Below are positions 42,949 to 45,543 of a stretch of 64,000 nt of DNA, one piece after another; within the stretch, counting starts at the first letter, position 1, and every line of letters begins with the position of its first letter. The notes under the pieces are model-generated. The model was not told the origin of the DNA and made no database searches. It saw only the letters and a program-made list of their open reading frames with translations. Position numbers and translations under genes: made by a program. Origin of the DNA: a virus; the UHGV virus genome UHGV-0171787. The stretch is one strand, 5' to 3'.

Positions 42949-43506
42949 TTACATTTTCCAATATAATGAAGGTGGGTCGTAAGGGTCAAATCCTGTGAGT
43001 TCACACAAGTATTTATAAACCTTAACAGTTAAATTAACGTCCTGTTCACAATAAGTAAACATATCCTCAGTGAAAGCATCCCATGCTTCCTCTTGCTCAC
43101 CGTAATCACCTTTAAGTTCCCCTAAGAACTCACCCCATTGCTTCAAGCCATGACCTCTTGGGCCATGTCTAGGGTCGCCTTTCGGGTACTCAGGACTGTC
43201 ACCAATACGGTCAGGTTTAAGATATCGACTAAGACATAAAGTGTCAAAGACGTTAAAACGATAGTTAATCAGATTGGGATACATCTTCTTCAGAGCACAA
43301 AGGTCGAAGTCAATAATATTGTGACCCACGAGCACATCTGCTTCTGTAAGTTTATGAATCCCATCTTCAATTTGGTGAGGCCGATAGCCCCACCTTTCAC
43401 CAGTTTCAACATCGAAAACATAAATACACCATACTTTGGTTATATCATCGTATAGTGCATTACTCTCAATATCGAATGCAAACACTTTCTTCTTTTTCTT
43501 TACCAC
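42949..43506 (-). CDS. Stand-alone 3'-5' proofreading exonuclease (DnaQ-like)
   Basis: 185 aa; Exo I FDIESN, Exo II HNIIDFD, Exo III YCEQDV. Confidence 0.75.
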
Positions 43507-44045
43507 GGTGAAGCTCCATCTGCTTGGCTGACGAGAGAAGCTGCATCCTCTCCGTTAGTTAAAACGAATGGATTATCTTCATCAACTTCAAAGTCTTCCC
43601 TTTCTACAAGTCTACCGGTTTCACTGATATACTTAGTATAACAGACACCTGTCTGACCGTAGTTACGTTCTTTCAGTAATCGAATGACTGAGAGGTTCTT
43701 AGCTAAGCCGTCAGCTTGCTTGTCACGCTCAAAGCCAATGATACACTGACACCAACGCATAAGAGAACGAGAGCCAGTGAACTGTACTTCACGTACCTGT
43801 CCACCTTCTTCATGAGGAGCACCACCTGCCGGAGCATTAAGGTGAGATAGCACGAAAGCGGTAAAGTCTAACTCTTTACACATACCAGCAAGCTCGGAAG
43901 CGATCTTACTGATTTCAGTGTTAATCTCTGAAGGTGTTAAATGAGATACCAGAGCGGTAATGTTATCAAGGATGATAAATTTACACTGGTTTTCAACTAC
44001 CCAGAAACGAATACACTGTTTAATGTCTTCCCATTCGTTTTGCAA
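43500..44045 (-). CDS. Replicative helicase, C-terminal part (Walker B onward)
   Basis: [15 protein letters not shown] (H2) and downstream motifs; track start is a TTG; frame stays open ~26 codons upstream with no canonical start. Confidence 0.7.
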
Positions 44046-44292
44046 TAATTCAATGAAGGACGCAACTCCTTCACCCGTAGCATTATATCTACTGCCCGTG
44101 GTTTCCCACGGGATTGGACTATATCATCACTCCTATTAAGGAGGCTAGGCGCTTCCACTAGCATTAGCTTCTAGTGTACTCCTTTCGGATAGTCTCTGCA
44201 CTTTCTAGGATGTATCCTAGCTTAGCTCAGGATTGGCATATCTTTCGACTTAGCTTTCCCTGAATTCACCTAGTTTTACTTCGGCCATTGTG
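44046..44292 (-). other. Intervening sequence splitting the primase-helicase gene
   Basis: ~250 nt between ORFs that are not in the same frame; contains hairpins cccgtgg/ccacggg and ctagga/tcctag; about 165 nt carry stops in all helicase-relevant frames. Confidence 0.4.
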
Positions 44293-45543
44293 TTAACCGA
44301 AGTTGTCATACAAGAAGAATTTGTCTGCATAACGAAGTGCTTCATTACGCAAATCCTCTTCATCATATTCAACATCAGGTCGGTGGAAAGGAATTGATGC
44401 TGACTTACCAGCGATGTTCTTAACAGACATGCCTACCTTCTCTTCCAAGAAGAAGCCACCCCCATTAAAACCATGTTCTAAGCACAGATGAGCAACAAGT
44501 TCGTGAGCAATTAGTGTTTTACCACTACCTACACCACCACCGATGGCTACCACCTCTCCCCATCGAATACCGAAGGTCATCTCATTCAGAGTCTTCCACG
44601 GGTAGGGGATACCCCACTCCGCTTTCTTCAGAGCATCATCAAGACAATCAAAGATTGTTACAGCTCCGGCAGGAGATTCCCGCTTTGCTGAATACTTGAG
44701 AATGTTGAATAACTCTTGACCGCGACCAGACAGAAGCATGTCATTCGCATCCTTAATCTCTTTCTCCACACCGTTGTATGGGAAAGTTCCTTTAGGAATA
44801 CGAGCAAACTTAACATGAGGGAATAAAGAACGACCTTTTGTTAAAGCTATCTCACCTGCATCATCGTTGTCCATGCAGAGCACAACCTCCTCAAAACCAT
44901 TTACGAAGTCTCGGTTACGAGACAACACAGAAGAGATTGAACCTGCACCGAACGGTAAAGAAACACAGGCTGGTTTAATGTTTGTTGCATTTGTAAAAGC
45001 TGTAAGGACATGGAAACCAGACATACAAGATAGCGGGTCTTCAAAAATGAACAGCTTCTTGTTGTACACGTCTCCCCGTTGAGCTTGTGCCATACCAAAT
45101 AAATCTGCTTCTTTCACACTGCCGACGTAATAAAACTTCTTACTATCTAGCAGTTTAACCTCATATCCGACAATGTTTCCATCACGTTCACGAGGAAAGA
45201 AGTAACTGTCTGGTGTCTGACCATCAGTTTGACTGAGACCAATACGACACTCAAAACGCTCTGATACAGCCTTGGGAATTAAACGGCGAGTAAGTTCACC
45301 CTGAGGGAGTTCTAAGCAATCATCTAAGACTTCTCTCAACTCTTCAGGGGATAACTCTTTCTTCTCATTTGGAGTAGGTGTAGTGCCCTTTTCGAACACT
45401 TCGTAATTCCCACAACGGTTACAACTTCCCCACTCCTCACCGGTCTCTTCGTTACGGAAGAGAATCATGTGGTTGTGGGTTTTATCACGACCATGAGAGA
45501 TACATTCCTTACAACCTGTGTCTCCCAAAATGATCTTTGACAT
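44293..45543 (-). CDS. DNA primase-helicase, N-terminal part (zinc-ribbon primase plus helicase Walker A)
   Basis: 416 aa; N-terminal Cys4 zinc ribbon, primase region, then GGGVGSGKT P-loop; ORF ends before Walker B. Confidence 0.8.
   Translation of the reverse strand: MSKIILGDTGCKECISHGRDKTHNHMILFRNEETGEEWGSCNRCGNYEVFEKGTTPTPNEKKELSPEELREVLDDCLELPQGELTRRLIPKAVSERFECRIGLSQTDGQTPDSYFFPRERDGNIVGYEVKLLDSKKFYYVGSVKEADLFGMAQAQRGDVYNKKLFIFEDPLSCMSGFHVLTAFTNATNIKPACVSLPFGAGSISSVLSRNRDFVNGFEEVVLCMDNDDAGEIALTKGRSLFPHVKFARIPKGTFPYNGVEKEIKDANDMLLSGRGQELFNILKYSAKRESPAGAVTIFDCLDDALKKAEWGIPYPWKTLNEMTFGIRWGEVVAIGGGVGSGKTLIAHELVAHLCLEHGFNGGGFFLEEKVGMSVKNIAGKSASIPFHRPDVEYDEEDLRNEALRYADKFFLYDNFG

Follow-up and report, generated by a model that had tools for sequence, protein, structure and literature searches.

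A 253-nucleotide group I intron in the primase-helicase gene of an E. coli Kuravirus phage

Phage DNA-metabolism genes are classic sites of group I introns, which may or may not carry homing endonuclease genes; examples are genes of T4 and Twort, the polymerase gene of SPO1, and the DNA polymerase genes of T7-like phages. The introns of the T4 td, nrdB, and nrdD genes and those of Twort belong to subgroup IA2 and lie in phage nucleotide-metabolism and replication genes. Group I introns have also been described in the helicase, ribonucleotide reductase (RNR), endolysin, and DNA polymerase genes of Staphylococcus myoviruses (K, G1, Romulus, and Remus) (PMC5526547). Our literature search found no papers describing introns in Kuravirus or phiEco32-like phages. 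Here we have analyzed the virus genome UHGV-0171787, using a stretch of 64,000 nucleotides (nt) that we call the window. Its primase-helicase gene almost certainly contains a group I intron of 253 nt, probably of subgroup IA, inserted between the Walker A/motif 1a and Walker B regions of the helicase.

The gene is located on the minus strand. A preliminary description, made from the letters of this DNA alone, had reported a primase-helicase gene split between helicase motifs by about 250 nt of structured sequence, and all the elements that it named are found where it placed them. The open reading frame (ORF) 44293-45543 (416 amino acids (aa), minus strand) encodes a zinc ribbon (CxxC...CxxC), the Walker A motif GGGVGSGKT, and a region weakly matching Toprim, and it terminates with TAA after ...FFLYDNFG. 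The ORF 43500-44045 (181 aa, minus strand, TTG start) encodes the Walker B motif FIILDNI, with a weak DnaB_C match, and lies in a different frame. The insert between them is exactly 253 nt long, refining the earlier estimate, and the two frames differ because this length is 3n+1. The frame of the downstream ORF stays open for 26 codons further upstream, as had also been noticed, and these codons are inside the intron (from P7' to P9.2) and without coding significance. The preliminary description left four options for the split, i.e., a small self-splicing intron, translational bypassing, a helicase made as two polypeptides, or an assembly error, and the evidence presented below supports the first one.

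A covariance-model search of the region 43800-44500 against Rfam gave one significant match, the group I catalytic intron family RF00028 (86.3 bits, E 1.5e-22, gathering score 50), at 44305..44095 on the minus strand. The match covers model positions 1-253, i.e., the full model without truncation, and no other Rfam match in the whole window reaches the gathering score. The boundaries of the intron were established by alignment with the uninterrupted gene of phage SU10 and with the intron-bearing gene of phage VTCCBPA_211, fixing the insertion point that the preliminary description had proposed to define by comparison with relatives. The gene is organized as follows:

44296..45543, minus strand: exon 1 of the primase-helicase gene, 416 codons, encoding the zinc ribbon, the TOPRIM primase, and the helicase Walker A and motif 1a.
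44043..44295, minus strand: group I intron, 253 nt, without ORF, from RF00028 and the alignment with intron-less SU10.
43500..44042, minus strand: exon 2, 180 codons plus stop, encoding Walker B FIILDNI, helicase motifs 3 and 4, and the C-terminus.

Exon 1 ends in ...TTC GGT, its final base being T (U) at 44296, and exon 2 starts with CAA AAC GAA TGG (first bases CAAAACGAATGG). The intron starts with UAACACAAUGG, whose first three bases are the in-frame UAA stop, and ends with ...AAUUAUUG, with the terminal G at 44043 (...UUAUUG) directly before the CAA of exon 2; in the alignment set, its limits run from TAACACAATGG... to ...GAATTATTG. The insert opens with the TAA terminating the upstream ORF and finishes with the G of the TTG used as start of the downstream ORF. 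The junction of intron-less SU10 reads ...TTC GGA CAG AAC GAA TGG, and the sequence of the intron-less site is TTCGGACAGAACGAATGG.

Removal of 44295..44043 yields an ORF of 596 aa (1791 nt) with no internal stop, of the same length as that of SU10, phiEco32, O18-011, the IMG/VR loci, and all the intron-less alleles. The spliced 596-aa protein, including the part encoded by exon 1, can be aligned over residues 117-571 with T7 gp4 (5ikn, E 1.5e-32). The sequence restored at the junction, FFLYDNFG|QNEW, is aligned to T7 FHLYDSFA|EAET just upstream of Walker B, and FIILDNI to VIILDHI. Two other classes of intervening element were considered and discarded. An intein is incompatible with an insert that opens with an in-frame UAA and is 3n+1 nt long. 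Group II introns contain six domains, including domain V, and usually measure at least 600 nt; the Rfam scan in E-value mode revealed no group II family, and the insert has only 253 nt.

The insert can be folded into the complete architecture of a group I ribozyme, in which all the listed pairs are standard. The mapped helices are the following:

44278..44303, minus strand: P1, in which the 5' exon ACUUCGGU (44303-44296) plus UA pairs with the guide UGGCCGAAGU (44287-44278).
44267..44273, minus strand: 5' strand of P3, CUAGGUG, pairing with 44145-44151 (CGCCUAG).
44200..44263, minus strand: P4-P5-P5a-P6-P6a domain, with the conserved P and Q elements AAUUCAGGGAAA / AAUCCUGAGC.
44190..44194, minus strand: 5' strand of P7, GACUA, in the R element GUGCAGAGACUA, pairing with 44117-44121 (UAGUC) in the S element AUGAUAUAGUC.
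44156..44189, minus strand: P7.1 (UCC/GGA) and P7.2 (CACUAG/CUAGUG), extra helices typical of subgroup IA.
44130..44143, minus strand: P8 hairpin, CUCCU-UAAU-AGGAG, with compensatory changes in 5/5 pairs.
44095..44112, minus strand: P9 hairpin, CCCGUGG-GAAA-CCACGGG, mapped, matched by Rfam, and backed by covariation.
44055..44092, minus strand: P9.1 (GUAG/CUAC) and P9.2 (GAAGGA/UCCUUC), two hairpins of the periphery that precede the 3' splice site.

P1 forms 10/10 pairs with a U(44296)·G wobble at the 5' splice site, and it is also present in the minimum free energy (MFE) fold. P6a is a 6-bp hairpin, located where the relatives of this intron hold an HNH gene. P7 forms a pseudoknot with P3, in agreement with the Rfam consensus, and, from the known architecture of group I introns, it is predicted to hold the guanosine-binding site. 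By the known classification, the presence of P7.1 and P7.2 would assign the intron to subgroup IA, to which the T4 and Twort introns belong. RNAfold alone gives all the mapped helices except the P7 pseudoknot. The MFE of the insert is -85.8 kcal/mol (z = -5.1), and none of 200 shuffled sequences folded as well, so that its structured nature, already noticed in the preliminary description, has been confirmed.

To look for relatives, we derived a covariance model from two sequences, the window intron and the intron of VTCCBPA_211 (VTCC211) with its ORF deleted. With it, ORF-less relatives of full length were retrieved from the capsid gene of Phage C72C1, from the RNR genes of Rhizobium phage RHph_N3_13 and Roseobacter phage CRP-7, and from the DNA polymerase genes of pYD6-A and BOESR1, together with three introns from marine metagenome contigs. 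In the resulting alignment of nine ORF-less sequences, 95.2% of the cells are standard pairs, as compared with 30-43% when the 3' partners are slid by 1-3 columns, and 50 of the 67 pairs have changed on both sides. The covariation score was 0.647 versus 0.188 in shuffles, none of the 500 shuffles reaching 0.647. All 10 pairs of P1 covary with the differing exon contexts across the relatives, P3 is 100% paired with compensatory changes in 4/7 pairs, and both P7.1 and P7.2 are backed by compensatory changes.

Translational bypassing, as in T4 gene 60, would proceed in this gene from a take-off GGU before the UAA to a landing site 253 nt downstream. As in gene 60, the stop codon follows directly after a Gly codon at the break. 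Nevertheless, the gap in gene 60 is about 50 nt, and in the window the codon before CAA is UUG, which is not a GGN landing codon and does not match the GGU take-off; moreover, a group I ribozyme with covariation support explains the sequence completely. The probability that we grant to bypassing is practically nil.

The two ORFs could otherwise be translated separately, giving a 416-aa primase/Walker A protein and a Walker B fragment of about 181 aa, initiated at the TTG at 44045 or nearby, that would assemble non-covalently. Both ORFs are intact, a clean stop ends the upstream one, and unspliced RNA would indeed yield the 416-aa fragment. We consider such an arrangement very improbable, since there is no Shine-Dalgarno sequence 5-12 nt before the TTG (the closest such sequence, GAAGGAG, lies some 20 nt away inside the P9.2 hairpin), and no promoter signal above chance. 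A scan for promoters and terminators across the gene found nothing above the shuffled expectation. In addition, the split point lies within the RecA-like core, the intron-less relatives all encode one 596-aa protein, and the insert is a complete ribozyme.

Several points count against reading the insert as a group I intron. P2 is absent, and P10 is weak, with about 2 bp. The covariation alignment was fitted to the model and is, therefore, biased toward its structure, although the margin over both controls is large. The RF00028 match stops at P9 (44095), and thus, the 3' splice site rests on the intron-less alleles, the terminal G, and the covariation of P9.1 and P9.2. An ORF-less copy cannot home on its own. 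Finally, the splicing activity in vivo is what we infer from the sequence.

In the mechanism that we propose for the intron, the gene would be transcribed as one pre-mRNA, in which P1 would pair the 5' exon with the guide, leaving a U·G wobble at the splice site, around the P3-P9 catalytic core. The intron would then bind guanosine and be excised via two transesterifications, joining ...UUC GGU to CAA AAC..., and translation of the spliced RNA would produce a single 596-aa primase-helicase. Ribosomes translating unspliced RNA would halt at the UAA with which the intron begins.

The region is about 97% identical to that of Kuravirus phages (Gordonclarkvirinae: SU10, phiEco32, Bas90/91, Shigella SGF2, and others). 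The phage of the window is a phiEco32/SU10-like podophage of E. coli. The matches of about 70 records fall into two pieces spanning 1995-1998 nt versus 2251, i.e., about 253 nt are missing, and the SU10 annotation contains a single 1791-nt gene for a 596-aa "DNA primase/helicase". Only one of the 98 phage records matching the gene region, that of VTCCBPA_211 (L001), carries the intron, inserted at the same junction. This intron is 739 nt long and contains a 176-aa ORF (NUMOD4, HNH_3, HTH_23) in the P6 loop, whose tblastn matches include SPO1-group HNH homing endonucleases with about 35% identity, some of them annotated as I-HmuI. In the VTCCBPA_211 record (PP989838; L001 3108-5637), exon 1 is named "DNA directed DNA polymerase" and exon 2 "helicase", while the HNH ORF is given as a "hypothetical protein"; this is the one related GenBank record examined that has the intron, and the intron is not annotated in it. 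About 55 nt of the VTCCBPA_211 HNH ORF overlap the ribozyme core (P7 to P3').

Over a length of 7251 nt, the window and the ENA metagenome contig ERZ27289133 k119_152547 (L031) have the same sequence, including the 253-nt intron. The exact 416-aa product of exon 1 is encoded on 17 public contigs, and all the 10 contigs examined, from several archives, carry the intron at this position, which we call site 1 (G416|Q417). The nucleotide differences found in exon 1 across the examined contigs leave the 416-aa product unchanged. The site-1 intron was found in three forms in these 10 contigs and VTCCBPA_211:

253 nt: ORF-less form (window, L031).
739-741 nt: form with a 176-aa HNH ORF (L001, L029, L035).
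739-740 nt: form with a 168-aa HNH ORF (L027, L028, L030, L032, L033, L034, L036).

The ORF-bearing introns of L001 and L010, the latter at a second site described below, do not match Rfam at gathering score, because an ORF of 340-490 nt splits the model; L010 reaches 48.6 bits in E-value mode. This distribution also bears on the last of the four options, an assembly error, and on the related possibilities of a sequencing artefact or a dead primase-helicase gene. The window does match a metagenome-assembled contig (L031), but the same insertion is present at the same nucleotide in the independently sequenced, cultured isolate VTCCBPA_211 and in independent public assemblies, both exons are intact, the exon-1 product is unchanged across the contigs, and the primase-helicase gene is essential for replication. 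We regard an artefact or a pseudogene as extremely unlikely.

The window intron has no endonuclease ORF, and no HNH remnant was found in it; the only similarity to the HNH of VTCC211 is a stretch of 18 codons over the conserved P7-P3' core. With respect to the ORF-bearing form, the whole segment comprising P6a and the ORF (about 510 nt) is replaced by the 6-bp hairpin. The intron core of L029 differs from that of the window in 2 nt outside P6 (about 0.9%), whereas the exons differ in 63/1536 positions (about 4.1%), indicating that the intron has moved between backgrounds. Conversely, the intron core of VTCC211 is more diverged from that of the window than the exons. Such discordant histories of intron and exons are as expected for a mobile element, and they suggest that the intron belongs to a mobile lineage that would spread by homing. 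Exon position -1 is T in all the intron-bearing alleles, as the U·G pair requires, and the intron-less alleles have GGA, GGG, or GGT. No longer co-conversion tract shared by the intron-bearing alleles was found, this T at -1 being the only position common to all of them and an A at +3 being present in a subset.

Since forms with the ORF predominate and the core of one of them is nearly the same as that of the window, we favor to some extent the loss of the endonuclease gene over its gain. The window intron would most likely have lost this gene, or had its P6 replaced, and would now be a passive passenger.

The window also contains a free-standing NUMOD4+HNH_3 gene (182 aa; 46172-46720, minus strand), just upstream of a gamma-glutamyl cyclotransferase gene and absent from most Kuraviruses. 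A second free-standing HNH-type ORF, of 171 aa (window 58433-58948, minus strand; ...HHKDENKLNNEPSNLE...), was detected by tblastn with other HNH proteins. The first of these genes, 1.9 kb upstream, could in principle mobilize the ORF-less intron in trans by collaborative homing, like the cyanophage psbA intron and F-CphI, and its presence near an intron-bearing gene, when most Kuraviruses lack it, would fit this possibility. We found it unsupported and judge it very unlikely, because HNH homologues (66-70% aa identity) occupy the same locus in EcoN5 and EK010, both with an uninterrupted primase-helicase gene, while the intron-bearing VTCCBPA_211 lacks the free-standing HNH gene. Besides, the free-standing HNH shares only about 38% identity with the intron-encoded HNH, and two other genes separate it from the primase-helicase gene.

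A second group I intron is found in the same gene of other Kuraviruses, at site 2, located 288 nt downstream of site 1, at ...FTGSRSLMR|WCQCII.... In L010 (3037-3656), this intron has 620 nt with a 111-aa HNH_3 ORF, and it is also present in L027 and L032 (about 5300-5900), which carry both introns; the window is uninterrupted at site 2. The window intron and the site-2 intron are identical over 47 nt, from P4 to the base of P6a, and share 18/19 positions across P6a'-J6/7-P7, but P1, P3, and P7.1-P9 differ strongly, as do the HNH genes of the site-1 and site-2 introns. The P6 flanks of the window intron resemble the site-2 type and not the ORF-bearing site-1 type. The replication module of Kuraviruses might hold a small family of related IA introns in active diversification, with modules being exchanged and new sites colonized, an idea that we put forward only tentatively and consider rather less probable than its opposite. 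If true, it would imply a recent intron-to-intron recombination or ectopic transposition within one gene, and the window copy would be a mosaic that shed its endonuclease gene.

Other introns resemble that of the window in the region that recognizes the exon. The RNR introns of CRP-7 (L020 1498-1756) and RHph_N3_13 (L018 1498-1770) have P1/guide regions almost identical to those of the window. The CRP-7 exon is AAUUCUGU with the guide region UUAACACAAUGGCAGAAGUAAAA, and the window exon is ACUUCGGU with UUAACACAAUGGCCGAAGUAAAA; the CRP-7 guide differs by one base that compensates an exon difference (UUCUGU versus UUCGGU), suggesting a retargeting to a look-alike site. The near-identity of the guide with those of RNR introns from marine and soil phages hints at retargeting of the reverse-splicing type.

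The neighboring replication genes provide additional observations. In the segment 41646-43506 of the window (minus strand), a 185-aa 3'-5' exonuclease gene (DNA_pol_A_exo1) overlaps the end of the primase-helicase gene and is followed by an ORF encoding a 452-aa nucleotidyltransferase-like protein. According to the SU10 annotation, this arrangement of exonuclease and nucleotidyltransferase-like genes is the norm in Kuraviruses, and it is not a second split gene. In Escherichia phage O18-011 (L024 1992-2742), the primase/helicase coding sequence (CDS) is separated from a CDS for a shortened "DNA polymerase" (exonuclease subunit) by an HNH gene followed by about 250 nt; this stretch scores 31.4 bits with the intron model and matches the L010 intron in its 3' half with 84.8%, and it is probably a further unannotated intron near the 5' end of the exonuclease gene. 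In the Gordonclarkvirinae phages Escherichia phage KarlSchell_Bas89 (L023 1085-3709), KBNP1711, and LAMP, a related intron with an endonuclease gene splits the gene for DNA polymerase I; in Bas89, the DNA polymerase I CDS is annotated as joined around the endonuclease gene, and the intron model matches both halves. A 28-mer covering P7-P7.1 was also tried as a marker of the window intron in exact searches of IMG/VR and JGI metagenomes, and it was rejected as a family-wide, non-specific motif, its matches being unrelated group I introns, i.e., one in an RNA-polymerase-like gene (L004), two introns (L005), and a DNA polymerase intron (L003/L006).

In practical terms, the two ORFs of the window should be joined as one primase-helicase CDS in the annotation. 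Kuraviruses, which are about 97% identical and grow on E. coli, present four states of this gene, namely, no intron, an ORF-less intron, an intron with either HNH, and two introns. This set offers a convenient system to study homing, co-conversion, loss of endonuclease genes, and intron retargeting.

Mobile elements of the kind seen in the window are ordinary in phage replication genes. Like the T4 td, nrdB, and nrdD (sunY) introns and those of Twort, the window intron is a small group I intron in an essential phage DNA-metabolism gene, with an IA-type core containing P7.1/P7.2 and a sporadic spread among close relatives, and the endonuclease ORF occupies a peripheral loop in those introns, as it does in P6 of the Kuravirus relatives. 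P2 is absent from the T4 nrdB intron as well. The differences lie in the host gene, here a T7-gp4-like primase-helicase, in the lack of an ORF in the window copy, and in the type of endonuclease, since those of the T4 introns are GIY-YIG (I-TevI, I-TevII) or defective enzymes and those of the Kuravirus relatives I-HmuI-like HNH enzymes. In this respect, the ORF-bearing Kuravirus form, with its NUMOD4+HNH_3(+HTH) endonuclease, resembles the SPO1/SP82 DNA polymerase introns (I-HmuI, I-HmuII), and it likewise lies in a replication gene, but host gene, phage group, and intron sequence are different, and the window copy has no endonuclease gene. The helicase introns of Staphylococcus myoviruses are a precedent in an unrelated helicase family and host. 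The introns of RHph_N3_13, CRP-7, C72C1, pYD6-A, and BOESR1 are about 70% identical in nucleotide sequence to the window intron across the core and form the same helices through compensatory changes, in different host genes and phage families. Compared with these systems, the Kuravirus intron opens no new category of element, and its main added value is the natural polymorphism together with the related second intron in the same gene of other Kuraviruses.

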